Assembly: GCA_947626305.1 (NCBI GenBank)
Contig: CANQRP010000001.1
Span: 1 to 54,682, forward strand
DNA from: an uncultured Clostridia bacterium
Lineage (GTDB): Bacteria > Bacillota > Clostridia > Christensenellales > Borkfalkiaceae
DNA: 54,682 nt
Direction: 5' to 3'
Position 1 is the first letter of the stretch. Each line of letters begins with the position of its first letter. The translations under genes and the position numbers were made by a program. Of this stretch, positions 26,601-54,682 are shown piece by piece. Under the pieces are notes generated by a model. It had not been told where the DNA came from and ran no database searches. It saw nothing but the letters and a program-made list of their open reading frames with translations.

Positions 26601-26644
26601 GGCTCAGGGTGACATAGAGCGTCAGAGCGGACAAATTGAGGGCA

Positions 26645-27862: not shown

Positions 27863-27927
27863 ACGCCCTCCTTGATAATTTCAGCGGCGTCTCCGCCCGT
27901 TTTGCCGCTCCGCTTGCGGCAAGCGAC

Positions 27928-28977: not shown

Positions 28978-29051
28978 AACCTGTTCTCCTTATGGAAAGT
29001 TTCTCTTAGTTTAATACTTTTTATTTCTATATAATGTTATAGGCGGTGGGT

Positions 29052-30752
29052 TCAACCGAGGTCGGCATTGAGCACGCCGAGCGCCTCTTCCGCCGAGGTG
29101 ATGCCCGCAAGCACCAATTTGCGGCAACTCTCCCGCAGAGTGGAGAAGGTGCCCTGTTTTACCCCTTCTGCAAGCTGCGCGGTGTGATGACCTTCCGCGA
29201 TCGCGCGCTTGAAGTCCTTATCGAGCAGCAAAATTTCGAATACGCCCGTCCGCCCGACGTAGCCGGTGTGATAGCAGTGCGGGCAACCCTTGCCGCGGTA
29301 GAAGCGGACGTCTTCCGCCGTTTCTTCGCACCCGAGCGCCGCGAGCACCTCGGGCGAGGGGGTATAAGCCTCCTTGCAGTGAGGGCAAATGCGCCGCACC
29401 AACCGCTGGGAGATCACGCCGTTGAGCGCGTCTGCGATCATGTAGGGCGCCACGCCGATGTCCACCAAACGATCGATCGCGGAGAGCGCGTCGCTCGTAT
29501 GCACGGTGGAGAGCACCAAGTGACCCGTGATCGCCGAACGAACGGCGATCTCCGCCGTCTCGCCGTCACGGATCTCACCGATGGCAATGATGTCGGGATC
29601 CTGACGGAGGATCGCGCGCAAGCCTTCCGCAAAGGTCATGTTGACTTTTTCGTTGATCTGAACCTGATTTACGCCGTCGATGTCGTACTCGATGGGGTCT
29701 TCCAAAGTGACGAGGTTGACTTCGTCGGTATTGAGAGAACGGATCATCGTGTACATCGTGGACGATTTGCCCGAGCCGGTCGGTCCCACAATGAGGACCA
29801 TGCCGTGCGCGGCGGAGAGCAGGCGATGATATTTTTCGAGATTTTCGCCTTCGAGACCAATGGCGTGCGCGTCGAGCAGCTGCGCGGATTTATCGAGCAG
29901 ACGGACGACGACCTTTTCCCCGTACATCGTGGGGATGGTGGACATACGGAGGTCGATATTGTGCCCTTTTACGAGGACGTTTGCACGACCGTCCTGCGGG
30001 ATGCGGGACTCGGCGATGTCCATTCCGCCCATGATCTTCAAGCGGGATACCACCGTGCGTTTGAGCTCGTCGGGTACGGTCAGCACCGTGCGCAACTTGC
30101 CGTCGATCCTCATGCGGACGACGACTTCATCCGCGCGGGGTTCGATGTGCACGTCGCTCGCGCGTTCGGAGGAAGCGCGTTCCAGAATGGAATTAACGAG
30201 GCGGACGGTGGGCGCGGATTGCTGCGTCTCTTCCGAGACCTCTTCGCTGTGGGGACGGGCGGACGCCGCCGTGTCGCGGGCGTTCGTGTCGCCGCGCATC
30301 TCCTCGATGGCACGCGCGACCCCCTCGTTGCCGTAGAGGGTGGAGATCGCCTTGTTCACCGCCACCGTAGTGGCGATCTTGGGCAAAATGCGCTTACGCG
30401 TTGCCGTACGGACCTCTTCGAGCGCGACGAAATTCAACGGGTCGGACATTGCAAGCGTGAGCTCGTCTTTATTGAGCCGTACGGGAACAACGCCGTGCCG
30501 ACGCGCAATATTCTTGGGCACGAGCGAAGCGAGCTCGATGGGGATGCGCACTTTGGAAAGATCGATGAAATCGATCCCGAGCTGCATCTCGAGCGTTTCG
30601 ATGAGGAGTTGTTCGTTGATGATGCCCTCTTCGATCAGAATCGTACCGAGACGCTCGTGCTTGGTCTTTTGCAATTCAAGCGCCTGATTAAGCTGTTCCT
30701 GCGTGATAGCACCATTGTTGACGAGGATATCGCCTAAACGAAAGTATTCCAT
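29052..30752 (-). CDS. pilB: type IV pilus assembly ATPase PilB (GspE family) with N-terminal MshEN-type domain
   Basis: 566 aa. Walker A GPTGSGKSST, ILRQDPDII, tetracysteine CPHC...CPHC. N-terminus carries two RLGxx..G....L...L..Q motifs. Confidence 0.95.
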   Translation of the reverse strand: MEYFRLGDILVNNGAITQEQLNQALELQKTKHERLGTILIEEGIINEQLLIETLEMQLGIDFIDLSKVRIPIELASLVPKNIARRHGVVPVRLNKDELTLAMSDPLNFVALEEVRTATRKRILPKIATTVAVNKAISTLYGNEGVARAIEEMRGDTNARDTAASARPHSEEVSEETQQSAPTVRLVNSILERASSERASDVHIEPRADEVVVRMRIDGKLRTVLTVPDELKRTVVSRLKIMGGMDIAESRIPQDGRANVLVKGHNIDLRMSTIPTMYGEKVVVRLLDKSAQLLDAHAIGLEGENLEKYHRLLSAAHGMVLIVGPTGSGKSSTMYTMIRSLNTDEVNLVTLEDPIEYDIDGVNQVQINEKVNMTFAEGLRAILRQDPDIIAIGEIRDGETAEIAVRSAITGHLVLSTVHTSDALSAIDRLVDIGVAPYMIADALNGVISQRLVRRICPHCKEAYTPSPEVLAALGCEETAEDVRFYRGKGCPHCYHTGYVGRTGVFEILLLDKDFKRAIAEGHHTAQLAEGVKQGTFSTLRESCRKLVLAGITSAEEALGVLNADLG

Positions 30753-33670: not shown

Positions 33671-33711
33671 ATCATTCTCCGCCCTTGTCGGCACCGACGC
33701 TCCCGCCGTGC

Positions 33712-34068
33712 TCAAAGGCTCGCTTCAAACGTTTTGATCGCCTCTACGGTCTTTTCATAATCCGCCTGTACGGGAGGGAGCAACTCCGCAGCGCCACCGA
33801 GCTCTCCTCCGCGGAGCGATTCGGTAAGCGCCGTGGAAGATTTTTCGAGCGCGGTAAAGCCCAAGTTCTGGCACATGCCCTTGATGGTGTGGGCGGCGCG
33901 GAAAGCCTCCGGCGCGTTTCCCTCCGCCAGAGATCGCAAAAGCAGTTGGTAACTGCCGTCCGCGGGGAATTTCAGCATGAACTTCTGCACGAGCCGTTCG
34001 CTGCGCAGCCTGCCGATCACATCGTCGTAATTGCCTCCGAGCGCCCGATAACATTCCTGAATGGTCAT
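33712..34068 (-). CDS. histidine phosphotransfer (Hpt) domain protein
   Basis: 118 aa with Hpt signature AAHTIKGMCQNLGF. Confidence 0.85.
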   Translation of the reverse strand: MTIQECYRALGGNYDDVIGRLRSERLVQKFMLKFPADGSYQLLLRSLAEGNAPEAFRAAHTIKGMCQNLGFTALEKSSTALTESLRGGELGGAAELLPPVQADYEKTVEAIKTFEASL

Positions 34069-34070
34069 AT

Positions 34071-36137
34071 TTACTCCGTTGATCCTGTGTTGGGAGCGGA
34101 TGTCCCGCTCTCCATTGATGCCTCGTAAAAGTTATAGGTGGCTTTGCCTTGATTTTTGGATGCGTAGAGCGCGAGGTCCGCCTTGCGGAAGAGTTCGCTG
34201 TAACGCTCCTCCCGTTCCTGCATCTCCACCACGCCCATGCTTACGGTGAGGTCGAAATCGCCCACCTTGCCGCAGAGCGATCTGAACACACGCGCGATGA
34301 TGGGACGGATGTCGCCGTCGTACTCGAACACGATGAGGAATTCGTCGCCGCCGATGCGCGCACACAAGTCGTGCACCCGCGTGCTGTGGAGGAGCCGCTC
34401 GGACACCTCCTGTAATACTTTATCGCCGAACAGGTGTCCGTATTCGTCGTTCGCGCTCTTGAAAGAGTCGATATCGAACACGGCGACCGCATATTTCCTG
34501 TCCGGGAAATTGATGAATTTTTGGGGGAGCTCTTCGTTTGCGCCCTCTCGGTTGAGAAGCCCCGTGAGCGGGTCGCGGATGGATTTTTCCCGCAGTTCGC
34601 TCATGGCGATGTGGGTGTCGTTTACGTCTACGAGCTTCCCGATCGCACTTTCGATGGTGGGGTGCATGTCGTCCGTCCAGATGGCACGCATGATGACGTT
34701 GTACCAACGCATCTCCCCTCCGATGGGAAGCTGGCATTCGTGGCGGAACTCGGGGGACTCGGGCGAAGTCCGCTTGAAAAACTCGCCGAGCCGTACGAAC
34801 CAATCTTTCCCGAGCTGCTCCGCGAGAGCGAGATTGCTCGCGGGATCGACGATCTCCTGCCCCACGCCGAATTTCCGCGCCCCCCACGAGGAGAGAACGA
34901 GGATGTTTTCGGCGACCCGATATTCGAACTGGATCTCTTCCGTGAGTTCCGCATAGAAGTTGTACTTCATGCGCTCGTAGTCGAGAAGTTTGAGGGTGCG
35001 TTCGGAAGCGCTCGGACCTTTGGAATGGACCACCGCGTCCGCAAAGTTGCGGATCTCGCGACGGCTCGCATTCTCGCTCGTTTCATGGGAGAGCGTGGTG
35101 CGGATGTTGTCGAATTCGTCCGAAAGGCATTCGAGCAACAGCGGATTGAAGGTCCCGCACTGCCCCGACAAGATCATCGTCTTGGCTTGCTCGGGAGAAA
35201 GGGGCGGTTTGTACACCCGTTCGCTCGTGAGCGCGTCGTACACGTCCGCGAGGGCAACGATCTGGGCGGAGATGGGGATATCGTCCCCTTTCAGCCCGTC
35301 GGGATACCCCCTGCCGTCCCAACGCTCATGATGCCAACGGCAAATTTCATAAGCGTGCTTGATGAGCGGGTCGCCCTTGTGCGCCGCGATCCCTTCGAGC
35401 ATGTTCGCACCGATCATGCTGTGCGTCTTCATCACGGCAAACTCCTCTTCGGTCAGTTTGCCCGGTTTGTTGAGAATTTTATCGTCGATGCCGATCTTCC
35501 CGATGTCATGCAGCGCCGACGCCATGGCGATGACCGAAATATCCGTCTCGCTCAGCGGATAGCGGTCGGTCTTCTTCACAAGTTTTCTGAGCAGGAAATC
35601 GGTGATCGTGCGCACATGAAGGATATGCAGACCGCTCTCGCCGTTGCGAAATTCGACGATGTGGCTCAGAATATCCACCATCATGCTGCTGTTCTGTTCT
35701 TTCTCGTTGATCTGCGCCTCGATGATGCCGATCAACTTTCTCTGCTTGGCGTACAGAAAGATGGTGTTGAGTACGCGGCGATGGACGATGGAGGCGTCGA
35801 ACGGGCGCATGATAAAGTCGGTCGCGCCAAGTTCGTATGCCCGCTCGATCTGCGCCGAAGCCGTCTCCGCGGAGACCATGATGACGGGTAGGTCTTCGAT
35901 GAGACGGGTGCGCTTCATCTCGGTGAGAACGTCGAACCCGTCCTTTTTGGGCATTACGATGTCGAGCAGAACGAGAGAGAAGCGATCGCTCTCTCTCGCG
36001 AGGATCTCGAGGGCGATCTCCCCGTCCTCTGCTTCGGTGACGTCGAATTCATCCGCCAACATATCCGCGAGAATGGAACGGTTCATCTCCGAATCGTCCA
36101 CAATGAGAATTCTTTCCCGCGCCTGTCCTTGCTGCAT
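34071..36137 (-). CDS. response regulator with REC, HD-GYP and GGDEF domains
   Basis: REC LVLLDIVMPKKDG. HD-GYP LHDIGKI...HHERWDGRGYPDGL. GGDEF DPLTGLLNR...RIGGDEFLIVF with RVHD (RxxD) 5 residues upstream. Confidence 0.9.
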   Translation of the reverse strand: MQQGQARERILIVDDSEMNRSILADMLADEFDVTEAEDGEIALEILARESDRFSLVLLDIVMPKKDGFDVLTEMKRTRLIEDLPVIMVSAETASAQIERAYELGATDFIMRPFDASIVHRRVLNTIFLYAKQRKLIGIIEAQINEKEQNSSMMVDILSHIVEFRNGESGLHILHVRTITDFLLRKLVKKTDRYPLSETDISVIAMASALHDIGKIGIDDKILNKPGKLTEEEFAVMKTHSMIGANMLEGIAAHKGDPLIKHAYEICRWHHERWDGRGYPDGLKGDDIPISAQIVALADVYDALTSERVYKPPLSPEQAKTMILSGQCGTFNPLLLECLSDEFDNIRTTLSHETSENASRREIRNFADAVVHSKGPSASERTLKLLDYERMKYNFYAELTEEIQFEYRVAENILVLSSWGARKFGVGQEIVDPASNLALAEQLGKDWFVRLGEFFKRTSPESPEFRHECQLPIGGEMRWYNVIMRAIWTDDMHPTIESAIGKLVDVNDTHIAMSELREKSIRDPLTGLLNREGANEELPQKFINFPDRKYAVAVFDIDSFKSANDEYGHLFGDKVLQEVSERLLHSTRVHDLCARIGGDEFLIVFEYDGDIRPIIARVFRSLCGKVGDFDLTVSMGVVEMQEREERYSELFRKADLALYASKNQGKATYNFYEASMESGTSAPNTGSTE

Positions 36138-40012: not shown

Positions 40013-42181
40013 TTACCGTTGTTTGCCGAGAAATTCTTTGAGAAGTTTGCACACCTGCCCCATGTCGATCGGCTTTGCCGTATGCGCATTCATGCCGCAG
40101 GCGAGGCAACGGGCAACGTCGTCGGAGAAGGCGTCCGCACTCATTGCGATGATGGGAACGGTCTTTGCGTCTGCGCGTTCCATTGCGCGGATCGCCTCCG
40201 TCGCCTCGTACCCGGACATCACGGGCATGCGGAGGTCCATAAAGATGACGTCGTAATATCCGATCGAGGAGGCGGCGAACAGGTCCGCACAGATCTTTCC
40301 GTTTTCCGCGGATTCGACGGAGAAGCCCACTTCGGAGAGGAGTTCCTCCGCGATCTCGCGGTTGAGCTCGTTATCTTCGGCAAGGAGCACCCGCTTGCCG
40401 CCGAAATCGGGCAGTTCTTCCGTTTGGGCGCTTTCGTGGAGTTCTTCCGCCGCCCGTTCGAGATCGAGCGCGATGTGGAACTCCGTGCCGATGCCGGGGG
40501 CGCTGGTCATGTCGATGCTCCCCTGCATTGCGTCGACGATATACTTCGTGATCGCCATGCCGAGCCCGGAGCCCTCGATCTGCCTCACCCGTCGGTCGTC
40601 TTCGCGGGCGAACGCCTCGAACACCTTCGACTGGAATTCTTCCGTCATGCCGATGCCCGTGTCCTTCACGCGGAAGTGCACCCGCACGAAGTTTTCGCCC
40701 CGCGGCGACGCCTCTTCGCGGCAGGAGAGCACGATCTCTCCCCCGTCCGGTGTGAATTTTACGGCATTGCCGAGCAGGTTGAGCAAAATTTGGTTGAGCC
40801 GCACGCCGTCGCAGAGCACATATTCGCTCCCGAGCGCATCGAACTCGGTTTTGAGGGAATGCTTCTTCGCCTGCGCCTGCGGCAGCACGATGTTCACCAC
40901 GTTTTCGAGGGTATCTTTGAGGGAGAGCGCCTCGTAGTGCAGCTCGAGCTTGCCGCTCTCGATCTTGGACATATCGAGAATATCGTTGATGAGCCCGAGG
41001 AGGTGGCGGCTCGAGACGGCGATCTTATCGAGACAGTTTTTAACCTGTTCCTTGTTGTCGAGATTGGCGAGCGCGATGGTCGTCATGCCGACGATGCCGT
41101 TCATGGGCGTTCGGATGTCGTGCGACATGTTGGACAAAAAGTCGCTCTTGGCTCTGCTCGCGTGTTCCGCGGTGCGGCGGGTCGCCTCCAATTCGCGCAG
41201 ATGCTTGCGCGTGAGGCGGAAATAGCACACGAACATCACCGACAGGGCGCAGAGGATGATGATACAGCTGATGACCGCCGCGATGCCCCACGCTCTGCCG
41301 AGGTTGTTGACCGTCATATCGAGCGGACCGTACGGCAGCAGGAGGAGCAGGCTCCATTCGGAGAAGGGCAGATCGGTCAAATACAAAAAGCGGCGTTCGC
41401 CGTTGAGCATGAACTGTGCCGAATACTCCTCCCCTTCCGCCATTGCCGTCTGCAATTGGGTGAGGAACACGTCCTTTTTCAGCGTTGCGCCGTCCTTATA
41501 GATGGCGCCGTAGCGCCGACGCACCCGCTCGAAATAATTGGTTTCGTCGATCTCGACGGTGCCGTCGTGCAGGATGATGTTTCCCTCGGAATCGATAATA
41601 AAGTAGTAGATCGAAGCGCTCTCGGTGTCGACGGAGAGGGTGTCGCGGATATAGGAAATGGGGAGCGCGGCGGCGAGGGCGCTGCTCTTTTCGCCGTTTG
41701 CCATATTATATGCCGCGGGCACGCCCATGACGACATAACTGTCGCCGTTGGCGTCGAGCGCCGTCGTCATCGCCTCTTCGCCCGAGAGGATGGACTGCAT
41801 GAACGAGCCGTCTTCCACGGTGAGTTGGTTGCCGTAGAGCATTTCGAATGTGCCGTTTTTTCCGCAGAGCGCGAGATGATCGAACCCGCGTTGGCGGGCA
41901 TGGTAGTTGAGAATGGCGTGCACGGAGGCGTCGTCCGTCTCCCGTTCGGGGGGAACGGCGTCTGTGAGCGCGCTCACCTGCGCAAGGCGGAGTTCGAACG
42001 TGGTGCCGAAGTGCGCGGCGGACTCTTCGCTGAGCCCCGACATATAGAGGGAGCCGAGCTCGCCGATCGCGTCTGCGTCGCGCTTGTTCATGATGCTGAC
42101 CATAACGGAAAAGACCGCCATGCACAACAGAAAGATGCAGACGATACTCACGAGCAAAAAGCGCGCCGTTTTGTTTTTCAT
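40013..42181 (-). CDS. hybrid sensor histidine kinase with one receiver domain
   Basis: TM, ~270-aa extracytoplasmic region, TM. H-box SHDIRTPMNGI, GSGLGMAI. REC DVIFMDLRMPVMSG. Confidence 0.9.
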   Translation of the reverse strand: MKNKTARFLLVSIVCIFLLCMAVFSVMVSIMNKRDADAIGELGSLYMSGLSEESAAHFGTTFELRLAQVSALTDAVPPERETDDASVHAILNYHARQRGFDHLALCGKNGTFEMLYGNQLTVEDGSFMQSILSGEEAMTTALDANGDSYVVMGVPAAYNMANGEKSSALAAALPISYIRDTLSVDTESASIYYFIIDSEGNIILHDGTVEIDETNYFERVRRRYGAIYKDGATLKKDVFLTQLQTAMAEGEEYSAQFMLNGERRFLYLTDLPFSEWSLLLLLPYGPLDMTVNNLGRAWGIAAVISCIIILCALSVMFVCYFRLTRKHLRELEATRRTAEHASRAKSDFLSNMSHDIRTPMNGIVGMTTIALANLDNKEQVKNCLDKIAVSSRHLLGLINDILDMSKIESGKLELHYEALSLKDTLENVVNIVLPQAQAKKHSLKTEFDALGSEYVLCDGVRLNQILLNLLGNAVKFTPDGGEIVLSCREEASPRGENFVRVHFRVKDTGIGMTEEFQSKVFEAFAREDDRRVRQIEGSGLGMAITKYIVDAMQGSIDMTSAPGIGTEFHIALDLERAAEELHESAQTEELPDFGGKRVLLAEDNELNREIAEELLSEVGFSVESAENGKICADLFAASSIGYYDVIFMDLRMPVMSGYEATEAIRAMERADAKTVPIIAMSADAFSDDVARCLACGMNAHTAKPIDMGQVCKLLKEFLGKQR

Positions 42182-42261
42182 GGGAGGACCCCCTCGGCAG
42201 TATAAACGGTATCGGGCAAAAGCAATGCCGTGCGGTGCTGTACGTCACGGCAAGATCGCTT

Positions 42262-42792
42262 TTACGTGGTAACTTTGGTGTAGAACGGGACGATGGACAT
42301 CTTATTGGACCAGAGCGTTTTGCCCGAACCGGCGATTTCGATCGTTACGGTGATGACGCCCGTCTTGTCATCCATCCCGAAGGTGAGCGATTGGAGGCTG
42401 ACCTCCTTATAGGCAACCGTGCCGATCGGTTTGAATTCGACCGCGGCGGAGGTAGTCTCACCGTCCCCGCCCACCGTGGAGCGTTCCGACGCGATGATGA
42501 GCATCCCCTCGTCCATATACATGGAGCTGTTGTCCCCGTAAGAGACGCTGTTATAATGCAATTCATCATTTTTGAGCGAAAACTCTTCGCCGAAGCGGAG
42601 TTCGTTGGTGATGATGTCCATAACGTCGGCGCCGAGCACGGCGGCTTTGGAGACCGCCATCATTTGCTCGCCCGTTCCGAAGAGCGCGGAGGTGCCGACC
42701 GCCGCCATGGAGACAAACACGGCGAGGATCGCCACGGCGACGAGCATTTCGGCGAGGGTGACGCCCTTTCTGTTAAAAATTTTCTTTTTCAT
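42262..42792 (-). CDS. minor pilin (prepilin-type N-terminal cleavage/methylation domain)
   Basis: MKKKIFNRKG|VTLAEMLVAVAILAVFVSMAAV with Glu at +5. AAGGAG RBS. Confidence 0.8.
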   Translation of the reverse strand: MKKKIFNRKGVTLAEMLVAVAILAVFVSMAAVGTSALFGTGEQMMAVSKAAVLGADVMDIITNELRFGEEFSLKNDELHYNSVSYGDNSSMYMDEGMLIIASERSTVGGDGETTSAAVEFKPIGTVAYKEVSLQSLTFGMDDKTGVITVTIEIAGSGKTLWSNKMSIVPFYTKVTT

Positions 42793-42801
42793 GGCGCTCC
42801 T

Positions 42802-43122
42802 TTAATCGCGGTACGAAGAGTATTGATCGTTGCCGAACTCCCGTACACCGACATTAAATTCCTCGGTTTCCTGACCGTGTTCGTCTTTATCAAATACTCT
42901 AATCTCTGTCTCATGTTCCTTCTTGTTCTGCATTGTCTCCATATCGCTGAGGGCGTCGTAATATTTGTCGTCCTCTTCCTTCGCTTTGAGGTTGAGGCTC
43001 ATGGACGCGGCGTACATCGAGGCGATGAGCGCGCAGCCGAACGCCACCACGAGCACGGCGACGAGGAGCTCCGCAAAGCCCTCGCCCTTTCTCGAACGCA
43101 ATTTTTTACTCAATTTCCGCAT
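42802..43122 (-). CDS. small minor pilin-like protein
   Basis: MRKLSKKLRSRKG|EGFAELLVAVLVVAF. Glu falls at +5 if cleaved after RKG. GGAGG RBS. Confidence 0.7.
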   Translation of the reverse strand: MRKLSKKLRSRKGEGFAELLVAVLVVAFGCALIASMYAASMSLNLKAKEEDDKYYDALSDMETMQNKKEHETEIRVFDKDEHGQETEEFNVGVREFGNDQYSSYRD

Positions 43123-43138
43123 ATCGGTTTCCTCCTTT

Positions 43139-43630
43139 TCATCCGTCGGTCTTATCCGCTTCGCCGCGCGAGATCTTGACGTTTGCTTTCTTCCAAGTGA
43201 TTTCGACTTTCTTTGATTGTTTTTCGGTGACGGAACCGGTAGTTCCGTCCCCGGTATAGTTGTATTCCGGCACGCCCTTTTCGGGAGATTCGCTCACGGT
43301 CGCCGCCCAATAGAGGTTGATGGCGTAGGAATCGCCCACGCTGTCCCCTTTATATAAAAAGGAAAAGAGCAGGTCGTAATTGGCTTTCATCACGAGAGTG
43401 CACTCCACAACGCCGAAAAGAGTATTATCCGGTTTGATCGTGAAAGAATGATACAGATCAGCGGGCAGCGTGGGAGTAACGGGGTTGCTCGATTTATCCA
43501 CACTGCTGTACCACTCCTGCGGGACGGACAGATAGGGCACGAGGTCATCGCAATGGTCGCGAATCGCCAGCGCAATACGAGACTTATAAACGCCATCTCT
43601 GACGCTCCCTTTTATCTCGCCCACCGGCAT
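43139..43630 (-). CDS. hypothetical protein, possibly the C-terminal part of the preceding pseudopilin
   Basis: 163-aa ORF with no signal or pilin N-terminus and a weak RBS. Its frame is -1 relative to ORF 43633-43986, across a G5 run. Confidence 0.5.
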   Translation of the reverse strand: MPVGEIKGSVRDGVYKSRIALAIRDHCDDLVPYLSVPQEWYSSVDKSSNPVTPTLPADLYHSFTIKPDNTLFGVVECTLVMKANYDLLFSFLYKGDSVGDSYAINLYWAATVSESPEKGVPEYNYTGDGTTGSVTEKQSKKVEITWKKANVKISRGEADKTDG

Positions 43631-43632
43631 AT

Positions 43633-43986
43633 TTACTTTATACCCCCATCTGTATTATTGCCTGTGAGGATATTCAAAGAATACTCATCGGTATAGGTCC
43701 GCTGAGGGGTTTCGTCTTTGTGGAAGGTCCAACTATGCGTATAGTCGAAGTTGATTGTCGCCGAGGTATATTTGAGTCCATTAAAGACATCGGCAACAAA
43801 GAGAGCGGCGGAAGTGACGGAGTAGTAGGGTTGACGGTCTTCCTCGGCGTGGGAATAGCGCCCGGCGTTGGCGGCAGCCATGGTGAGCGCGGACACGCCC
43901 GCGAGGGCGCAGAGCAAGAACAGGAGCATGGCAATGGTAATGGACGCCCCTCTTCTGCAATGAAATTTTCTCACAATTTTCTTCAT
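43633..43986 (-). CDS. PilX/GspK-like pseudopilin lacking Glu5
   Basis: MKKIVRKFHCRRG|ASITIAMLLFLLCALAGVSAL. GGAGGGAAG RBS. Confidence 0.65.
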   Translation of the reverse strand: MKKIVRKFHCRRGASITIAMLLFLLCALAGVSALTMAAANAGRYSHAEEDRQPYYSVTSAALFVADVFNGLKYTSATINFDYTHSWTFHKDETPQRTYTDEYSLNILTGNNTDGGIK

Positions 43987-44003
43987 GATTTAGTTCTTCC
44001 CTC

Positions 44004-45470
44004 CTATTCTAACGTCCACAGGCTTTGCATGTTACTCATAAGAGTCTTAAGGTTGTTTATGGAAGTATCAAGATTTGTCTTCAAAGTATTAAACGCTTGA
44101 TTTTTACCCGTACCATTTACCTTCAAATCTTTGATCGTCGTCCACAGCGTATCCAATTCGCCGGAAAAATCTTTGAGTTGGTTGTAAAGCTGTTTGACCG
44201 CATCCAAAGAGACATCATTTTTATTGTCTGCAAACTTTTGCACGGTCGCGTTCGCCTTGGTCAGTGCGTTCTTCATAGCGGTTTCGACACTATCTGTTTT
44301 ATTGTTCCAATTACTCGAATCTGCTATAAACTTATTTATCGTCGACTGCAAATCCGAGACTTGCGCGGAGACGCTTTGCAAAAGTTCCTTTTGCTGCTCT
44401 TCGGGGCTCTTTTGGATGTGATACTTATGATTGACGGGGTCTTCGGCGATCATGTCGGCAGTGAGCCAATCGCCATAATGAAACAACATCTCCGTTGCAA
44501 CAAGCCCCTTATCATTCGAGCCGCCGTCCGCGATCGCTCTGCCCGGAACCATGAGGTAAGGATAGTAACGCGTTAAATCGCCCTTTTCGTTATAGGGGAA
44601 CACGTTGTTATAAATGCCGTTGTCCTGATCGATGTAAGCGTGGGTCGAAAAATTATACGATGACTTGTAGTCGTAGAAGAACTCACCGCCGATGTGATGA
44701 TGACCTTCTTCATCGTGTCGAAGGTTGCGGAGTTCCGTAGCGGAATAGATGCGGTGCCCCGAATCGTGCCCTTCCCAATCTGTTCCGAGGAGAAGATTGA
44801 GGTTATTTTTGCACTCCTCTATGGCGGACGCATCCGTACTGGTGCAAGTCAGCTTATATTCGAGAAGGTCGAGTGCGCCGTCCACCCCCGAATTGATCAC
44901 GTTTACGGCAGCAGAAATATCGTAGCGCACATCATCGAAAAGGTCGCGGAAGCCGCGCAGATCGCCATACGCGAGTTGATAACCGGTACCCTTTTGATAA
45001 TACCCGAAATCGTCTTTTTCCTTGTTATCGAGGAACTTCACCGCGTTGTCGGCTTTTACGTCCTTCACATTTACGGTCTCGCTTACTACTTTTCCGTCGT
45101 CCGTTTTGGTAATTTTGGTAACGGTTTCTTTATCGAAGAAATCGTAGAGAGCGTCATAAGCGTTGTACGCCGTTTTCGCCTGCGTGCGCAACTCTTCGAG
45201 GTTGGTCGTAGGCGGCTTTTTCGCAAGACCTTCTACAAGTGTTTGCAAATCTACCAACGCACTCCTTGCCGTTGCCGCCTTTTCTCCGCCCGTCTTTTTG
45301 ATCTCATCCAAAGGAGATTCGGTCCAATTTTCCGACGCTTTCGTAAATTCGTCGATATATGCTATCGCCGTAGAGAGCGTTGCCTTTTTTTGCTTTGCAA
45401 AAGTTCTTGGCGTCTTGCGTCGGTCAACGTCATCGAGTGGAGCACCTCGAGCAAACGGTTGTTCGTCCAA
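44004..45470 (-). CDS. fragment 4 of the giant pilus-associated protein (helical C-terminal region)
   Basis: 488-aa ORF whose only start is a TTG with no RBS. A convincing coding signal begins at the A7 tract 45385-45391. Same frame as fragments 1 and 2. Confidence 0.6.
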   Translation of the reverse strand: MDEQPFARGAPLDDVDRRKTPRTFAKQKKATLSTAIAYIDEFTKASENWTESPLDEIKKTGGEKAATARSALVDLQTLVEGLAKKPPTTNLEELRTQAKTAYNAYDALYDFFDKETVTKITKTDDGKVVSETVNVKDVKADNAVKFLDNKEKDDFGYYQKGTGYQLAYGDLRGFRDLFDDVRYDISAAVNVINSGVDGALDLLEYKLTCTSTDASAIEECKNNLNLLLGTDWEGHDSGHRIYSATELRNLRHDEEGHHHIGGEFFYDYKSSYNFSTHAYIDQDNGIYNNVFPYNEKGDLTRYYPYLMVPGRAIADGGSNDKGLVATEMLFHYGDWLTADMIAEDPVNHKYHIQKSPEEQQKELLQSVSAQVSDLQSTINKFIADSSNWNNKTDSVETAMKNALTKANATVQKFADNKNDVSLDAVKQLYNQLKDFSGELDTLWTTIKDLKVNGTGKNQAFNTLKTNLDTSINNLKTLMSNMQSLWTLE

Positions 45471-46504
45471 CGGTCGCGATAGTAATAGAACGTTTGCCTG
45501 CCCACCTCGTCCCCCTGAGACTGGTAATAGTTTTTCGACCGGTCGAGCGCAGTATGGAGCACCGATAAGTTATGGGTATACAAAAGCCCCGTCGTGTAAT
45601 TATTACCCGTGCCGAAAATTTTGTCAAGAAGCGCCTTGTCCGCAGCGGCATCTGTCGAGGTGCCGCCGATCAAACGACCGAGCGCGCCTTTTGCGAGATC
45701 GTAAAAATACATAAAGGTGCAGTTTATCCCTTCAATGCCGTAGTTTTCTTTTAATACCGGTCCATCGTTGCCCGAAGGATTTGACTCCCATTGTCTTTCG
45801 TCGCGGAGTGTGATCTTCACCTCCTGCAACTTTCCATCTTTATCGGTGTACTCCCACGTTCCGTCGTAAAGGCACTTCATCAGTTGGAGCATGGTGACAT
45901 TGGCATAGCGCGTCCGTCCTTCTTCCGGAGTTTGGCTTTTGTCGTATTCCTGCGTTTTGCCGGTATCTTGCCATGTCCGGAAATGTATTCCTTCATAAAT
46001 ACACCACTTGTCGATATAGAAATCTGTGCCTACTTTACTCCCATCGCTACCGTAATAGCCGCCTTTGTTATATTCTTGCTCCGATGCGGGGGAGAACGCC
46101 GTCTCCTTGCTGAATTGCTCGATCAGCCTTTCGTAATTGATCTTCAACTCTTCGAGGCTGTCACGCTGCCGCGCCCACATGAGTTTATCGCGGGTGGCAG
46201 AAATCAAGTCCGTTGTCGATGTGGAACCCGGAAGGGCATTCAAAAAGTCCTGTGCGATCTGTTTTGAATCTTCAAAATATTTGCTGTCCCGATAGGGGAT
46301 GCCTTTCTGCGGGAAGAAGTAGTTCTCGTTGTCGTATTGGAAGTCCGCGCCGAAGAAGAGGGCGCCGCCGAGACTATATTTTTTATCCTTACCATCTTCC
46401 TTCTTCCACTCTATTTGACTGCCGCTACTGATCGCCGACCCGGAATTCGACGTGAGCCACTTATAGCCGTCGCCCTCGAAGGTGCCGTAAATGGGCGTTG
46501 TCAC
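45362..46504 (-). CDS. fragment 3 of the giant pilus-associated protein
   Basis: 380-aa ORF with a GTG start and no RBS. The frame stays open and protein-like up to the TAA at 46568-46570. It is +1 relative to fragment 2. Confidence 0.6.
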   Translation of the reverse strand: MTTPIYGTFEGDGYKWLTSNSGSAISSGSQIEWKKEDGKDKKYSLGGALFFGADFQYDNENYFFPQKGIPYRDSKYFEDSKQIAQDFLNALPGSTSTTDLISATRDKLMWARQRDSLEELKINYERLIEQFSKETAFSPASEQEYNKGGYYGSDGSKVGTDFYIDKWCIYEGIHFRTWQDTGKTQEYDKSQTPEEGRTRYANVTMLQLMKCLYDGTWEYTDKDGKLQEVKITLRDERQWESNPSGNDGPVLKENYGIEGINCTFMYFYDLAKGALGRLIGGTSTDAAADKALLDKIFGTGNNYTTGLLYTHNLSVLHTALDRSKNYYQSQGDEVGRQTFYYYRDRWTNNRLLEVLHSMTLTDARRQELLQSKKRQRSLRR

Positions 46505-46538
46505 CTTGGCGCCGCCGGTTCCGATCGGGTCGCCGGCT

Positions 46539-47339
46539 TCATCGACCTCCGTTGCAATGCGATTTCCTTATTTCATCGAGCGAAAATGTCTGCAACGTGG
46601 AGTCCCATGTATACGAAGAGCCGGACCCTGTTCCGTAAATGACGGCGCAGTAATTATCGTACACGAGGAGCGCGGATTTCGTAATACCGCCCTGTTCGTC
46701 GATATACCCGATGAGCCCCGCGGCGCTCTGCGTGACATTTTCGATATGACCCGCCGTATAGCAACTGGTGATCTCATATCGGTCGCCTGTGTTATCGGAG
46801 TCCTCAAAAACAGTGCCGACGAGCCCGCCCACGCCCATTTCGTACACCTGCGAAATATAAGCCGTCATTCGCGACTTTACACTGGGGTTGACAAGCAGAA
46901 TGTTGTATAGATTATCTTTGTAAACATATCCGAACAGCCCCGCATAGAACGGAGCGTCCACTTTCAGATGCTTGATGGTGAGATAATTCCCCGCGTAGGT
47001 AAAGCCGGAGGGAAGGTTGATCGGCTCGAAGAGAATTTGATTGCCATAGTCGACAGCCGCCCCATTCTGCATCCAATCCTTGCATTGGAAATCGATCGCC
47101 ATCACCTGATTGGCTTGGGTGATCTCTTTGACGCACTTGCGATACTTATATTTTGGGCTTATTTCTTCGTCTCCGGCGTCATCTGTATAAAAATAACCTT
47201 TTCCGCGACTGACATCGCTGTATTTATAAGTTCCGTCCGGCTGCAATTCTTTTGTCGACAACCACTTTTCGTTGAATGCCGAATTCGGTTCGGTGAGTTT
47301 TGCGAGATTCTGCAAATGCCGTCCGCAGGCAATATCCAC
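46539..47339 (-). CDS. fragment 2 of the giant pilus-associated protein (GLUG-motif-like repeats)
   Basis: GTG start with no RBS. In frame with fragment 1 across a single TGA. Motifs AGLFGYV, VGGLVGTV, AAGLIGYI resemble GLUG adhesin repeats. Confidence 0.6.
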   Translation of the reverse strand: MDIACGRHLQNLAKLTEPNSAFNEKWLSTKELQPDGTYKYSDVSRGKGYFYTDDAGDEEISPKYKYRKCVKEITQANQVMAIDFQCKDWMQNGAAVDYGNQILFEPINLPSGFTYAGNYLTIKHLKVDAPFYAGLFGYVYKDNLYNILLVNPSVKSRMTAYISQVYEMGVGGLVGTVFEDSDNTGDRYEITSCYTAGHIENVTQSAAGLIGYIDEQGGITKSALLVYDNYCAVIYGTGSGSSYTWDSTLQTFSLDEIRKSHCNGGR

Positions 47340-47363
47340 CGAGCTACTACCGTAATTTTGAAA

Positions 47364-48113
47364 TCAGCCGTTGAACGTCACCGTGCCGGTCCGCGGCATA
47401 TAGGTAGGGTCGATCACTTGATTGGTCCCTTCGCCGCCGCTCACACAGAACACCGTCACCGCCACCTGCACGTTGTCTCCGAGTTTGATATAGCTGTCAT
47501 CGGTACCATCGAAAGCCTTCGTCAAATTCGCCCACTGTTCAAAGGTGCCCGAAGGGGTGTCGGAGAGTTTCGCTGCCGGCTCTGTCTTGGGCGTGTAGAA
47601 TACATTGTTGGGCGTATCGAGAATGAGCTTATATGTCTCGCCCATTTCAATGTTGGCGTCCTGCATCACAGCGTTCGTTCCCGTTCCGTATGTTTTGTAG
47701 ATCGCAGTGTCGTCGTAGGTGAGCCCACCCTCGCTGTAAGCTTTGAGATTTTCGTCCGCCATGGAAATGCGGAGCCCCAAAACCTTATTGAGCGCTTTCA
47801 GTTCCTGCACCTCGGGCAGATAAATGGAGAGCGTGAGCTGCTCGTAATTGGTGATGGTGAGCTGAGGCGTGGGAAGCTGCGCAAACGCAACGTCGCCGGT
47901 ATCTACCGAACCTTCGTAATAGCCCACCTTGTCCGTCTTGCGCCGAGCCAAATCATTTGCAAGGTTGTTCAAATAGGCTGTGGTGTATTCTTTGAATTTT
48001 TCTTGGCTCCAAAATACCTGCCCCACACTGCCCGTGTTCGCATAAAATCCAACGGCATAGTACCCCGCCGCCACATCGCTCTCGAGAGAACCGAAGGGCA
48101 ACAAATTGCTCAT
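47364..48113 (-). CDS. fragment 1 of the giant pilus-associated protein
   Basis: 249-aa ORF. Its ATG overlaps the pilin stop (ATGA), with only a distant weak SD. No signal peptide. A -1 shift in the A7 tract 48121-48127 would fuse it to the pilin module. Confidence 0.6.
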   Translation of the reverse strand: MSNLLPFGSLESDVAAGYYAVGFYANTGSVGQVFWSQEKFKEYTTAYLNNLANDLARRKTDKVGYYEGSVDTGDVAFAQLPTPQLTITNYEQLTLSIYLPEVQELKALNKVLGLRISMADENLKAYSEGGLTYDDTAIYKTYGTGTNAVMQDANIEMGETYKLILDTPNNVFYTPKTEPAAKLSDTPSGTFEQWANLTKAFDGTDDSYIKLGDNVQVAVTVFCVSGGEGTNQVIDPTYMPRTGTVTFNG

Positions 48114-48463
48114 ATGTGTATTTTTTTCCCATCCTCATCATAGCTGAACAAATAGCGATAGCCGCCCTCGTCCCCGCTGTCCGTGGAGAGGGAGGCGCCG
48201 CTGATGATAGAATTCTTCGGAGTAGCCTTTTCGCCGATCGTCAACAAAGAATCGAGCTGACCCGCCGTGCGCATCTCGGCAAAGCGGTTTTGAAGCGCGG
48301 TCGCAATGGATTCGGCGTTGCGGTCATATTCCACATGGTAGATCGTTTGCGGGTCGACAAACAAAAATGCGATCCCCGCAAGCAAGGCAATAATGGCAAC
48401 GACGATAAGCAATTCGGTCAAAGTAAAACCGCGTCTTTTTTGTAATTTTCAAGCGAGCTTCAT
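48110..48463 (-). CDS. prepilin-type protein whose leader is interrupted by an in-frame TGA at codon 5 (possible pseudogene, phase-off state or recoded)
   Basis: GGAGG-7nt-ATG AAG CTC GCT TGA AAA TTA CAA AAA AGA CGC GGT TTT ACT TTG ACC GAA reads MKLA*KLQKRRG|FTLTELLIVVAIIALLAGIAFLF. The ORF track starts at the TTG at 48421, which would remove the leader and the Gly-1/Phe+1 cleavage site. Confidence 0.65.
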
Positions 48464-48487
48464 ATCTGTGCCTCCGTTTGGGCTCGG

Positions 48488-48522
48488 TTTTTCAATGTTT
48501 TTAGCTGTTTTGAGATGTTTTT
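48488..48522. repeat. four T(4-5) tracts phased at exactly 10 bp in the leader of the pilin operon
   Basis: T-runs start at 48488, 48498, 48508 and 48518. The coding strand reads gaaaaacatctcaaaacagctaaaaacattgaaaaacc. Confidence 0.75.
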
Positions 48523-48564
48523 CACTGCTTGGGCGGGCGATCCGCCGCCTTCTATACAGAGTGA

Positions 48565-48593
48565 ATTATACTATAATATGCCGAAGTTGTCAA
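48565..48593 (-). promoter_or_regulatory. consensus sigma-A promoter TTGACA-17-TATAAT for the minor-pilin/adhesin operon
   Basis: Coding-strand read ccaTTGACAacttcggcatattatagTATAATtcac, ~100 nt upstream of the ATG at 48463. Confidence 0.65.
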
Positions 48594-52049: not shown

Positions 52050-53408
52050 TCACCGATTGTCTTCGGAAAAAATGATATTGAGGTGGAACACATCCCCCTT
52101 GGCAAAGGCGGACATTTCGCCGCCGTACTTGCGGGCGATGAGCCGCAGGCTCCGCATTCCGAAGCCGTGGTGATCTTTATCCCCCTTGGTGGTGACGGGA
52201 AGCCCGTCCTCGAATTCGAGCACGCCGTCGAAATAGTTCTCCTCCTGCACGAGAAGCAACCCATCCTTCTGTTTGACCACGAGGTCGATGATCCGACGGT
52301 TGGGCTCGGCGATGTTTTTGACCGCTTCGAGCGCGTTGTCCACAAGGTTGCCGAACAGACAATACAGGTCCCCTTCCTCGATAAAGGCGAGCTTTTCGCC
52401 GTCGATCATGCAGGACATGCTGATGCGGTTCTGTTCGCAGAAGAGGCTCTTTTCGGTGAGAAGCACATCGAGGAGCGGGCTGCCCGTTTCGATGCGGGAA
52501 TCGTAAATGGAGATGTTTTCGTTCAAGTCTTCGAGGGTGGGCGCGCCGCGCGCGGCGAGCATGCCGAGCTTATAGCGGATATCGTGGCACTTGATGTTGA
52601 TGAGGTCGATGGTGTCCTTCGAAATGCGATATTGCCGCTCGCTCTGGCGGATGGCGTATTTGAGATATTCCACTTCGCGGGAGAGTTCGTTCGCGACGAC
52701 CGTTTTCCCCGCAAGGAGGAAGACGATCACACAACAGACGACGGAAAAAACGTTGCCCGTCTGCCGCAGGACGACATGAACGGAACTCTCGAAGCGATTC
52801 TCCCTCACGGAACTCAATTGGGCGAAGTAGACGTCCTCGAAGGAGCAAAGAAGCACGGTGACGCCGAGCACGAACACGGTGATGGCGAGCATGCGGTGAT
52901 CGAGCCGACAGGCTTCGAGCCGCTTGTTCATTCCGCGGACAAAGCAAAAATAGACGGCAACGGCACACACGAGGAAGCAGGCATAATAGATAAGACGGTA
53001 ATAAAGGGCAAAAAACTCACCCCATGTATCAAAAATGCGATAAGCCTCTCCCGCCGTCCAGAATATGAGAAAGAGTTTGTATACGAGATTTTGCGCGGCA
53101 TAGGCGAGGGTACAGCGGAAGAGCAAGGCAAAAAACGGCTCGTCGAAGCACCAAAGCGAGAGCAGAATGACGGCGACGAAGAGGAAGAGATAGACAACGA
53201 TGCGCCCGGAGACATAGCGCACCCCGAACAGCGAGTAAAACCATGCAACGGGGATCCCGACCGCAAAGAGCTGGAGCAGGGAGAGCGGAAATTTCCACCA
53301 AAACCCGCGCGCGCGTTTGAGTTTGCGGAAAAACATGGCGCAAAAGACGAGGAGTTCCGCGAGGAATTCAGCGATCACGATGCCGTAGAGGCGAAAGATC
53401 TCACTCAT
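52050..53408 (-). CDS. GHKL-type sensor histidine kinase (AgrC/LytS-like, partner of the LytTR regulator)
   Basis: Six or more N-terminal TM segments, H-box-like KCHDIRYKL, C-terminal FGNLVDNALEA...HGFGMRSL. The ATG at 53408 overlaps the regulator stop; the ORF is open to 53441. Confidence 0.8.
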   Translation of the reverse strand: MSEIFRLYGIVIAEFLAELLVFCAMFFRKLKRARGFWWKFPLSLLQLFAVGIPVAWFYSLFGVRYVSGRIVVYLFLFVAVILLSLWCFDEPFFALLFRCTLAYAAQNLVYKLFLIFWTAGEAYRIFDTWGEFFALYYRLIYYACFLVCAVAVYFCFVRGMNKRLEACRLDHRMLAITVFVLGVTVLLCSFEDVYFAQLSSVRENRFESSVHVVLRQTGNVFSVVCCVIVFLLAGKTVVANELSREVEYLKYAIRQSERQYRISKDTIDLINIKCHDIRYKLGMLAARGAPTLEDLNENISIYDSRIETGSPLLDVLLTEKSLFCEQNRISMSCMIDGEKLAFIEEGDLYCLFGNLVDNALEAVKNIAEPNRRIIDLVVKQKDGLLLVQEENYFDGVLEFEDGLPVTTKGDKDHHGFGMRSLRLIARKYGGEMSAFAKGDVFHLNIIFSEDNR

Positions 53409-54120
53409 TTTTCCCCTCCGCGCCCGCGTACCAATCGGCAAGTTCCGCCAAAAACGCGTTGCGCCGCGGGCGGCTGATGGAGAGCGTTTCGCTGCCGACC
53501 TGCACGGACAGCCCCTTGATGCTCACGATAAACTTGGGGTTGACGAGATAACACTGGTTGCAGCGCAGAAAACCGAATTTTTTGAGTTCGTCCTCCACCT
53601 TGTAGAGCACCCCCGTGATCTCGATCACGTCGTCCACGAGATGATAATAGAGACGGTGGCGGACGATCTCCACATACATGAGTTTTTCGGTGGAGATGCG
53701 GCACAGTCCGCCCGCGGTATTCACCGTGATCGCCTGCTCGGCGTTCATGACGTAGATATCGAGCGCCTTGCGGAATTTGAGCGCGAAATCGTAATACTGC
53801 ACGGGCTTGATGAGATAGGCGACGGCGTCCACCTCATACCCCTTCTGCGCATACTGCATGAGGTTGGTGATGAAGATGATGGAGACCGTTTTGTCGATCG
53901 CCCTCAGATCGACTGCGGCGCTCATGCCGTCGCGGTGGGGCATCTGGATGTCCATGAACACGACGGAATAGAGCGGTTGATAGCCCGTTAAAAATTCGAC
54001 CGCATCGCGAAAGCGGACCACGTTGAATTGCTGCCCGCTGTTCTTTTCGTATTGCACGATATGCGCTTCGAGCGCCTGCGCGGCGATGTCCTCGTCCTCT
54101 ACAATGGCGATGTTCCTCAT
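53401..54120 (-). CDS. LytTR-family response regulator
   Basis: 239 aa from MRNIAIVEDEDIAA. REC VVFMDIQMPHRDG. C-terminal LytTR block FLRCNQCYLVNPKFI. The ORF-track extension to 54354 is rejected. Confidence 0.9.
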   Translation of the reverse strand: MRNIAIVEDEDIAAQALEAHIVQYEKNSGQQFNVVRFRDAVEFLTGYQPLYSVVFMDIQMPHRDGMSAAVDLRAIDKTVSIIFITNLMQYAQKGYEVDAVAYLIKPVQYYDFALKFRKALDIYVMNAEQAITVNTAGGLCRISTEKLMYVEIVRHRLYYHLVDDVIEITGVLYKVEDELKKFGFLRCNQCYLVNPKFIVSIKGLSVQVGSETLSISRPRRNAFLAELADWYAGAEGKNE

Positions 54121-54138
54121 AATTTCCCCTCTGATGGT

Positions 54139-54167
54139 ATCATAACAAATCCGCCCCGTCTTGTCAA
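54139..54167 (-). promoter_or_regulatory. sigma-A-type promoter TTGACA-17-TATGAT (TGn extended) for the LytTR/kinase operon
   Basis: Coding-strand read TTGACAagacggggcggatttgtTATGAT, immediately after the terminator of the upstream gene. Confidence 0.55.
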
Positions 54168-54168
54168 G

Positions 54169-54212
54169 AAAAAAATAAGCGCCCGCACAGCCGTTTCCGG
54201 CTGCGCGGGCGC
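54169..54212 (-). terminator. intrinsic terminator after the GH3-like gene
   Basis: 14-bp GC-rich stem (one mismatch) gcgcccgcgcagcc / ggctgtgcgggcgc, followed by ttaTTTTTTT on the minus strand. Confidence 0.75.
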
Positions 54213-54229
54213 GTTCGAGGGGAAGAATG

Positions 54230-54682
54230 TCAGCTGTTTTGCGCGGAACTTTCCGCCTTTTCGGGCTTCTTTCTGCCGCGCAGAATGGCTTTTGCGAGGA
54301 AGGTCGCCATGACCGCAACGCCCGCGGCGAGCGCGACCTCCACCAGCGCCACATACCAGATCCACGTCAGATCATAAGAAGCGCCCGCGCCGAGGTCGAT
54401 CTCCGCCGCATCGGGGTCAAACGCCGCCTCCGCCCGAAGCGTGTCGGTAAGCGTCCAGAGGACGTCGTGTGCAACGTGCTCGGCGATCTTATAGCCCGTA
54501 TCGTTCTTTATGGAGTTGAATACGGTGTTCGTGAGCCCGTTGGTGAGCCAAATATCGTTGCCCGCCCAAATTCCTCTGTAGGGGGGCATGTAGTCCTCGT
54601 TCGAATTCATCCAGTCGGTGACGATGGTGCCGTGGAAGCCCCATTCGCCGCGGACGATCTCGTTGACGAGCCCGTAGTTCGC
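54230..54682 (-). CDS. GH3-like glycoside hydrolase, C-terminal part only (5' end outside window), with C-terminal TM anchor
   Basis: The frame is open to the window edge. It reads ANYGLVNEIVRGEWGFHGTIVTDW (GH3 catalytic-Asp context), and ends in a hydrophobic WIWYVALVEVALAAGVAVMATFLA plus a basic tail. Confidence 0.55.
   Translation of the reverse strand, partial: ANYGLVNEIVRGEWGFHGTIVTDWMNSNEDYMPPYRGIWAGNDIWLTNGLTNTVFNSIKNDTGYKIAEHVAHDVLWTLTDTLRAEAAFDPDAAEIDLGAGASYDLTWIWYVALVEVALAAGVAVMATFLAKAILRGRKKPEKAESSAQNS

Follow-up and report, generated by a model that had tools for sequence, protein, structure and literature searches.

A giant modular type IV pilin gene and its neighbour in an uncultured rabbit-gut Clostridia lineage are probably recent pseudogenes

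Introduction

Does a run of short open reading frames (ORFs) behind a prepilin module represent an operon of separate small proteins, or does it represent the remains of one giant gene, and if so, is that gene dead, switched or wrongly assembled? This question is raised by a minor-pilin operon on a 54,682-nucleotide (nt) stretch of DNA from an uncultured Clostridia bacterium (positions 1 to 54,682 of contig CANQRP010000001.1, GenBank assembly GCA_947626305.1; hereafter the window, to which all positions refer). In this operon, all features of which lie on the minus strand, a prepilin module (48110-48463) is followed by four ORFs with weak starts and without a ribosome-binding site (RBS). An earlier note on the sequence had interpreted these ORFs as one giant modular pilin or adhesin gene of ~1480 aa that is broken in five places, and had offered recent inactivation, a contingency locus (possibly with recoding) and assembly errors as explanations. 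We report here that recent pseudogenisation of this minor-pilin/tip-adhesin operon is the best-supported explanation, and one that we consider likely.

Raynaud et al. defined modular pilins, argued that these proteins are tip-exposed adhesins, and described 264 architectures, including IPR012902-IPR011493 (PMC8179133). Among the examples are PilB and PilC of Streptococcus sanguinis, in which the pilin is combined with a vWA and a lectin module, respectively (PMC8179133; PMC9934059).

Results

The four ORFs are pieces of one gene that is intact in relatives

The features of the giant gene are as follows, in the direction of transcription.

48565-48593, minus strand: sigma-70-type promoter TTGACA-17-TATAAT of the minor-pilin operon, with 12 of 12 consensus matches.
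44004-48463, minus strand: giant modular type IV pilin gene, probably now a pseudogene (conceptual product 1486 aa), from comparison of the repaired translation with single-protein homologues.
48449-48451, minus strand: lesion 1, TGA in frame as the fifth codon of the prepilin leader, where relatives have Lys, Arg or other residues.
48121-48127, minus strand: lesion 2, A7 run one base short (frame 0 to frame 2), with the switch confined to 48134-48113.
47364-47366, minus strand: lesion 3, in-frame TGA in place of a conserved Trp codon, from the DNA of relatives.
46814-46847, minus strand: junction of an in-frame deletion, which left the hybrid unit YEMGVGGLVGTVFEDSD, from alignment with all relatives.
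46538-46579, minus strand: lesion 4, +1 frame junction, at which frame 2 ends with TGA 46541 and frame 0 opens at 46567.
45385-45391, minus strand: lesion 5, A7 run one base short (frame 0 to frame 2) at an invariant Lys, from alignment with relatives.

The four ORFs lie at 47364-48113 (start codon ATG), 46539-47339 (GTG), 45362-46504 (GTG) and 44004-45470 (TTG). No Shine-Dalgarno (SD) sequence precedes any of them, whereas the two small pilin genes farther downstream carry AAGGAGG and AAGGAG, a contrast that the earlier note had drawn correctly; the N-termini of the four ORFs are out-of-frame junk, and translation signals of their own are lacking. A three-frame stop-codon map traces the coding path from the pilin module in frame 0 through the A7 run at 48127-48121 into frame 2, across the in-frame TGA at 47366-47364 within frame 2, through a +1 step at TGA 46541 back into frame 0, and finally through the A7 run at 45391-45385 into frame 2, which ends at TAG 44006. 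With one A added to each A7 run and a base skipped at 46541, 1486 codons fall into one frame, in which the two TGAs are the only interruptions; the proposed set of two in-frame TGAs, one +1 junction and two A7 tracts cured by an extra A is therefore upheld by both the frame map and the repair. The conceptual 1486-aa product has a class III signal peptide and a pilin module, together with conserved N-terminal domains, a remnant of GLUG repeats and a C-terminal half that is long and helical. A PDB profile search matched the pilin N-terminal helix only, and an AlphaFold2 model of fragment 2, built from a 19-sequence alignment, reached a pLDDT of 40.

A search of 5.8 billion proteins with the repaired 1486-aa product gave 20 matches; each of the top 15 is a single protein (1344-1884 aa) with N_methyl (PF07963) and, in most, GLUG (PF07581). 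The best local alignment spans 90-100% of the query in 14 of these top 15 matches, at 31-37% identity, and the multiple alignment is continuous across every junction of the repaired product, as expected from the proposal of one giant gene broken five times. A scan of one genome per GTDB species identified 15 related loci, all in metagenome-assembled genomes of uncultured rabbit-gut ('Lapin') Clostridia, with contigs that are SPAdes short-read assemblies. Most of the giant gene is contained in 13 loci, 12 of which carry it in one frame by tblastn, and the orthologues thus show a single uninterrupted ORF rather than four genes, while the window copy is frame-broken five times and the next gene once.

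The intact homologues combine a pilin module with a non-pilin domain in the same polypeptide and are hence modular pilins. The family is small, as a full-library search with the C-terminal 459 aa returned only 15 representatives; a metagenome scan found distant relatives only (24-30% identity), mostly over the N-terminal 200-500 aa and mostly on human-gut contigs. Three of the homologues (P0004, P0005 and P0008; ~1880 aa) extend past the shared core by a C-terminal ~250 aa. Residues 1648-1783 of P0004 match the Hint module of intein/hedgehog-type autoprocessing, though below the curated cut-off (PF01079, E=6e-5); P0005 and P0008 can be aligned with this region, which is an unusual addition to a pilin.

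The broken region is more AT-rich than its flanks, as had been noted (47-52% GC compared to 55-60%). The same gene also lies below its flanks in most relatives; low GC is therefore a trait of the family, and horizontal transfer, considered as its source, was rejected for the same reason.

Promoter, start region and prepilin leader

The perfect promoter that had been described ahead of the prepilin module (48593-48565) directly follows a terminator-like hairpin at the end of the GH16 gene upstream. Near-identical promoter sequence, TTGACAAC...GCATATTATAGTATAAT, precedes the giant pilin gene of L007, the closest relative, which is syntenic and ~50% identical. In the window, GGAGG (48475-48471) is followed after 7 nt by the ATG at 48463. 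The leader reads MKLA-stop-KLQKRRGFTLTELLIVVAIIALLAG, with TGA as codon 5, and continues through the cleavage site as KRRG/FTLTELLIVVAIIALLAGIAF (in short form, MKLA-stop-KLQKRRG/FTLTELL, where the slash marks cleavage); the match to Pfam N_methyl (PF07963; E=9e-9) identifies a class III signal peptide. Signal peptides of this class have a short basic leader with Gly as its last residue, and then Phe or Met at +1, Glu at +5 and a stretch of ~20 hydrophobic residues, a pattern that the window sequence fits. No other start codon was found in the leader ahead of the Gly/Phe cleavage site.

Eight of the related loci (L002, L004, L005, L006 and L008-L011) carry an inverted repeat, approximately GTACAnAGAAT...ATTCTnTGTAC, ~40-130 nt upstream of the giant pilin start. 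This repeat is often trailed by a second half-site and resembles an operator or an RNA hairpin; the window and L007 keep merely the half-site-like CTCTGTATAGAA and ACACAGAAT, respectively, of this 5'-leader element.

Compared with orthologous DNA, each lesion looks like a single simple mutation

At the position of lesion 1, L015 carries CGA and L011 carries AGA, and the TGA therefore probably arose from CGA by a C-to-T change, which is the simplest origin. For lesion 2, the A7 run is the sole homopolymer in the 22-nt interval in which the frame can switch; A8 would give ...DGKKNTHMSNLLPFG, in agreement with ...ENKKNPEMTYILPFG (aag aaa aat) in L011, both of which encode KKN. Lesion 3 replaces a codon for which the relatives are uniform, as the window reads aacggcTGAttt and 13 of 13 related loci read aacgg(c/t/g)TGGttc (FNGWF), a difference that corresponds to a G-to-A transition; Trp occupies this column in 12 of 14 protein homologues. 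At lesion 5, A8 gives ...LLQSKKKATLSTAI (SKKKA), which compares with ...AKKNALMTA in L007 and ...TKKEYIMTE in L011, K1026 being invariant.

Lesion 4 is located in a length-variable loop just upstream of the invariant PIYGTFEGDG. It is bracketed by an 8-nt direct repeat, TCGATGAA, with copies 34 nt apart, and deletion of 34 nt (3n+1) restores the frame. However, repeats of 8-12 nt arise by chance in the same 300 nt around this junction, so that the exact event is uncertain; as the 26-nt insert has no further copy in the window, we rejected the repeat as proof of a 34-bp insertion and treat such an insertion as a possibility only. The same junction contains a 13-codon mini-ORF (MKPATRSEPAAPR, 46503-46545) with an ATG that overlaps the TGA of fragment 2 (ATGA) and a TGA that overlaps the GTG of fragment 3 (GTGA). 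This mini-ORF is probably a chance by-product of the frameshift.

In addition to the frame breaks, the window copy lacks 95-119 residues that are found in all relatives and comprise GLUG repeats 2-3 and parts of repeats 1 and 4. A single hybrid unit (VGGLVG) is what remains of these repeats, and this loss of ~100 aa explains why Pfam, which detects GLUG in the homologues, detects no GLUG motif in fragment 2 of the window.

The next gene of the operon is also broken

Four further features lie downstream of the giant gene.

43139-43986, minus strand: GspK/PilX-like minor pilin gene, probably a second pseudogene, present as ORFs of 117 and 163 aa, both of which match the same frame in relatives.
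43643-43647, minus strand: lesion 6, G5 run one base short (frame 1 to frame 0), with the switch confined to 43654-43636.
42802-43122, minus strand: small minor pilin of 106 aa, apparently intact, with an AAGGAGG RBS and matches in related loci.
42262-42792, minus strand: minor pilin of 176 aa (N_methyl, E=1.4e-6), apparently intact, with an AAGGAG RBS and full-length matches in relatives.

The G5 junction, which the earlier note had flagged as a mere candidate (43628-43657), is a real break, as the gene concerned is one uninterrupted ORF in 13 of 13 relatives (~241-334 aa in 12, and 496 aa in L013); G6 restores the frame to read ...NNTDGGYKVNMPVGEIKG.... The leader, RRG/ASITIAMLLFLL, is non-canonical and has no Glu5. 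Neither the 117-aa nor the 163-aa half has a Pfam family match; position in the operon and leader type suggest that the product is a GspK/PilX-like tip pilin. The 106-aa pilin has full-length matches (from query residue 1-3 to 105) in 10 of 14 related loci, while the other four alignments begin at residue 12-13 or, in L013, stop at residue 63. Thus, all five breaks first proposed are present in the sequence, but they under-count the damage, which comprises the split neighbour gene and the ~100-aa in-frame deletion as well; in total, 6.2 kb contain six lesions that break the frame and one deletion that preserves it.

Breaks are confined to this operon and TGA is an ordinary stop codon

The expectation that no comparable break exists in the remaining ~50 kb was confirmed for the ~30 other genes that were checked, all of which show full-length Pfam coverage, no frame break and no in-frame TGA. 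Under a uniform distribution, the chance that all six lesions fall within 6.2 kb of the 54.7 kb is (0.113)^5, or ~2e-5, and the clustering is thus not due to chance. At least five other 7-nt homopolymers (A7, T7 and G7 runs) lie inside window genes, all in frame, and a general homopolymer sequencing error was rejected on this basis. In a composition-based gene set, TGA terminates 21 of 43 other ORFs, including the Pfam-supported pilB and pilC and the large GH16 gene, and the window contains no tRNA genes and no Rfam elements; UGA reassignment and selenocysteine insertion were therefore rejected.

At 155 columns that are otherwise invariant, the window protein deviates in 8 (5.2%), all of them conservative changes, compared to 4.1% for the intact L011 and 5.6% for L007. 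No long-term relaxation of constraint was detected in this comparison. As a rough estimate, two nonsense mutations plus three or four indels in 4.5 kb correspond to ~0.5-1% neutral divergence, which would be invisible at such phylogenetic distance. Because the conserved residues are still in place, the decay appears to be young, at roughly 1% neutral divergence or below.

A second break in a sister species, and a search for further copies

The giant pilin gene of L007 has a single frameshift of its own (6320-6345), at a C5 run just before PIYGTFEGDG and ~10 codons from the +1 junction of the window, but in other sequence and in the opposite direction. This frameshift is also present in L066 (150-200), an independent contig of 1.8x coverage from another sample that is 99.96% identical; reproduction of the break indicates that real frameshifts in the giant pilin gene do occur in this clade and type of data. 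The L007 break is a second and independent break of the giant pilin gene in the clade.

Exact-protein look-ups of the fragments and flanking genes for the same species returned no match except a 1055-bp contig, L016 (ENA ERZ27249325), which corresponds to window positions 42189-43243 at 99.8% identity (2 mismatches) and represents the species of the window at ~1.4x coverage in an independent sample. L016 covers the two intact small pilin genes only, and its 176-aa minor pilin is identical to that of the window. A 435-aa protein (P0021), considered as a same-species copy, was rejected as it is the gene call of the window itself.

The type IV pilus machinery and its surroundings

The window also encodes a complete set of pilus genes.

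21753-30752, minus strand: type IV pilus machinery pilB, pilT, pilC, pilA, pilD, pilM, pilN and pilO, with full-length Pfam or homologue matches.

The Pfam families matched are T2SSE, T2SSF, N_methyl, Peptidase_A24 and PilM_2. With pilB (29052-30752), the major pilin gene pilA (25062-25544) and pilD (24007-24786; A24_N_bact and Peptidase_A24), the window encodes both a cognate prepilin peptidase and the assembly machinery, 12-27 kb from the minor-pilin operon. In L015, the same eight genes (pilBTCADMNO) lie immediately upstream of the giant pilin gene, and a histidine kinase located downstream is common to L007 and the window (66% identity). From the contiguity in L015 and from the kinase and promoter sequence shared with L007, we conclude that the operon encodes the minor pilins of the type IV pilus of the window.

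Several other features of this neighbourhood were observed. Between pilA and pilC (25550-26640), a 99-aa ORF (26056-26355) with an N-terminus judged by eye to be GIY-YIG-like is flanked by several direct repeats of 60-95 nt (up to 92-97% identical) and resembles a mobile or REP-like cluster inserted in the pilus operon. Adjoining the pilus genes, 1255-17009 encodes SNase, Endonuclease I, a 5'-nucleotidase-like protein, pyrimidine-nucleoside phosphorylase, a PNP/UDP-family protein and an ABC importer with its solute-binding protein; this cluster of secreted-nuclease and nucleoside-salvage functions suggests scavenging of extracellular DNA. Signalling genes are interleaved with the pilus genes (17173-20283, 30908-36137, 40013-42181 and 52050-54354) and encode three hybrid histidine kinases, a response-regulator-HD-GGDEF protein (turnover of cyclic di-GMP, c-di-GMP) and a LytTR two-component pair. 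Rfam at gathering thresholds identified no c-di-GMP riboswitch in the window.

Discussion

The operon of the relatives encodes a giant modular pilin of ~1500 aa, a GspK/PilX-like pilin of ~240-330 aa and two small pilins, and we propose that the first two genes have become pseudogenes in the window. The damage would have arisen through two nonsense transitions (TGG to TGA and, probably, CGA to TGA), three single-base homopolymer losses (A8 to A7 twice and G6 to G5), a small insertion at the +1 junction and an in-frame deletion that removed ~100 aa between GLUG repeats. These are the commonest types of spontaneous mutation, namely GC-to-AT transitions, homopolymer base losses and deletion between repeats. 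Translation from the retained promoter and RBS would stop after four codons, and therefore no processable prepilin would be made. By its architecture, and by analogy with other modular pilins, the intact giant protein would be an adhesin located at the tip of the pilus. Inactivation of a modular pilin or adhesin gene of about the length proposed in the earlier note is the option that fits best.

A number of observations weigh against this interpretation. The only independent contig of the same species lies outside the lesions, and the perfect promoter and RBS have been kept. Six or seven lesions beside a preserved protein sequence represent a high density, though one compatible with ~0.5-1% neutral divergence. 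The pilus machinery is full length, which would be odd if the sole minor-pilin set in the window were dead; a second set elsewhere is possible. Finally, the adhesin role of the intact protein is suggested by its architecture, with a fragment model of low pLDDT.

Some or all of the lesions could instead be assembly or consensus errors in a metagenome-assembled contig, with the real gene being intact. Three of the six frame breaks are indeed single-base homopolymer shortfalls, the classic error of this type, and the window is a complete 54,682-bp contig that occurs once in the collection, with no independent copy that spans the lesions. Nevertheless, errors of this kind would have to hit one 6.2-kb operon six times while ~30 other genes remained full length and the other 7-nt homopolymers within genes remained in frame; moreover, two of the lesions are substitutions and one is an insertion, none of which is a homopolymer artefact. 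Such errors are also rare in SPAdes short-read assemblies, from which the relatives derive, and the comparable L007 frameshift recurs in an independent contig. We thus regard assembly error, the third explanation offered earlier, as unlikely.

Another explanation is that the locus is a contingency or recoded locus, in which slippage at the A7, A7 and G5 tracts (in DNA or during transcription), UGA read-through and a +1 shift at GGAGGT-CGA-UGA would yield traces of full-length tip pilin. All three homopolymer lesions are one base short in the same direction, the promoter and RBS are perfectly kept, and one TGA stands exactly at a conserved Trp codon, where the native residue would be regained if near-cognate tRNA-Trp read through the stop; the TGA at codon 5, by contrast, is not aligned with Trp. 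Suppressor tRNAs, which could be counted in favour of read-through, occur in ~0.3% of standard-code bacterial genomes (PMC13092985), but the window holds neither a tRNA gene nor an Rfam element, and TGA is a normal stop elsewhere in it. The SD-like GGAGGT directly before CGA-TGA at the +1 site is reminiscent of prfB, in which a +1 shift occurs at CUU-UGA with an upstream SD sequence, and the A-runs at the -1 junctions are reminiscent of dnaX and IS3 (-1 at A-AAA-AAG). However, a P-site CGA is unable to re-pair in the +1 frame, the SD spacing at the junction is unlike that of prfB, and the A-runs do not form a zero-frame X-XXY-YYZ heptamer. None of the sites is conserved, as the orthologues have a single frame with TGG and without A8, and the yield from five low-efficiency events in series would be negligible. 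Phase variation of Neisseria PilC offers another parallel, since a pilus-associated adhesin gene is there out of frame at a homopolymer tract, in this case a poly-G tract in the signal-peptide region. In Neisseria, though, one long tract of ~11-13 G is the sole and reversible lesion, whereas in the window three short tracts (7, 7 and 5 nt) co-occur with two nonsense codons, an insertion and a deletion, lesions that are not reversible; the window locus is therefore not a switch of this kind. As a contingency or recoding mechanism is unsupported by these comparisons, we consider it quite improbable. More improbable again is the specific idea that the operon is alive at trace expression through stacked recoding, that is, through slippage at A7, A7 and G5, UGA read-through twice and an SD-stimulated +1 shift. 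If it were true, only rare cells or ribosomes would make the giant tip adhesin, and the recurrent loop break in L007 would reflect selection for switchable or split expression of the pilin.

It is also conceivable that the gene has undergone functional fission, with each fragment translated on its own through termination-reinitiation and the products still working together as a multi-subunit tip complex. This idea draws on the overlap between the pilin stop and the fragment 1 ATG (ATGA), on the +1 junction, at which ATGA opens the mini-ORF and its TGA overlaps the fragment 3 GTG (GTGA), and on L007, which is split by another mutation within ~10 codons in the same inter-domain loop, with recurrence in a second sample. 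The overlaps are trivial, however, when ATG-A is read out of frame, and the ATGA and GTGA motifs, considered as translational-coupling signals, were accordingly judged to be by-products of out-of-frame reading. We roughly estimate at ~0.1 the chance that a single L007 lesion falls within the same 30-codon loop as any of the five lesions in the window. In addition, the leader TGA at codon 5 precludes a cleavable prepilin, no fragment has an RBS, and fragment 4 has no start where homology begins, the in-frame TTG at 45311 (the gene call of the source) lying 24 codons downstream and likewise without an RBS. Fission therefore seems very improbable to us, and recent pseudogenisation continues to be the interpretation that we prefer.

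Comparison with known systems places the intact family among the modular pilins. As with S. sanguinis PilB and PilC, other minor pilins are encoded alongside the giant pilin, whose predicted role is that of a tip adhesin in a monoderm; unlike PilB and PilC, the window copy is broken and has lost most GLUG repeats, and most of the length of the homologues is without a Pfam domain. The intact homologues (1344-1884 aa) are roughly three times the size of PilB and PilC. The operon order, i.e., a large pilin, a ~240-330-aa RRG/A... pilin and two small pilins, is similar to that of the tip complexes of type II secretion systems and type IV pili (GspK/PilX-like plus GspI/J/H-like); here, family matches at the sequence level are absent and the assignment is by position and leader type. 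The Pfam architecture of the intact homologues equals IPR012902-IPR011493 (pilin plus GLUG/M26-type), as listed among the modular pilins (PMC8179133). With regard to gene decay, several inactivating lesions cluster in an operon for a surface adhesin whose neighbourhood is intact, as in Salmonella Typhi, although the organism studied here belongs to an uncultured gut Clostridia lineage. Decay of fimbrial operons in Salmonella Typhi is an example of adhesin pseudogenes in niche-restricted bacteria.

Conclusions

For annotation, the ORFs in the 42.2-48.5 kb region should be merged into two pseudogenes rather than listed as ~seven hypothetical proteins. The pseudogene itself is of local interest and represents an ordinary phenomenon in a little-studied but already catalogued architecture. 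The gene family is a useful by-product, consisting of GLUG pilins of 1344-1884 aa, some of which have a C-terminal Hint module, with three partner minor pilins; these giant GLUG pilins are among the larger modular pilins described. For the organism, our data would mean that the type IV pilus of an uncultured Clostridia lineage from the rabbit gut is being stripped of its tip-adhesin module, while full-length matches persist for the assembly machinery, and the independent break of the same gene in a sister species hints at selection against the adhesin or at a lost need for it.

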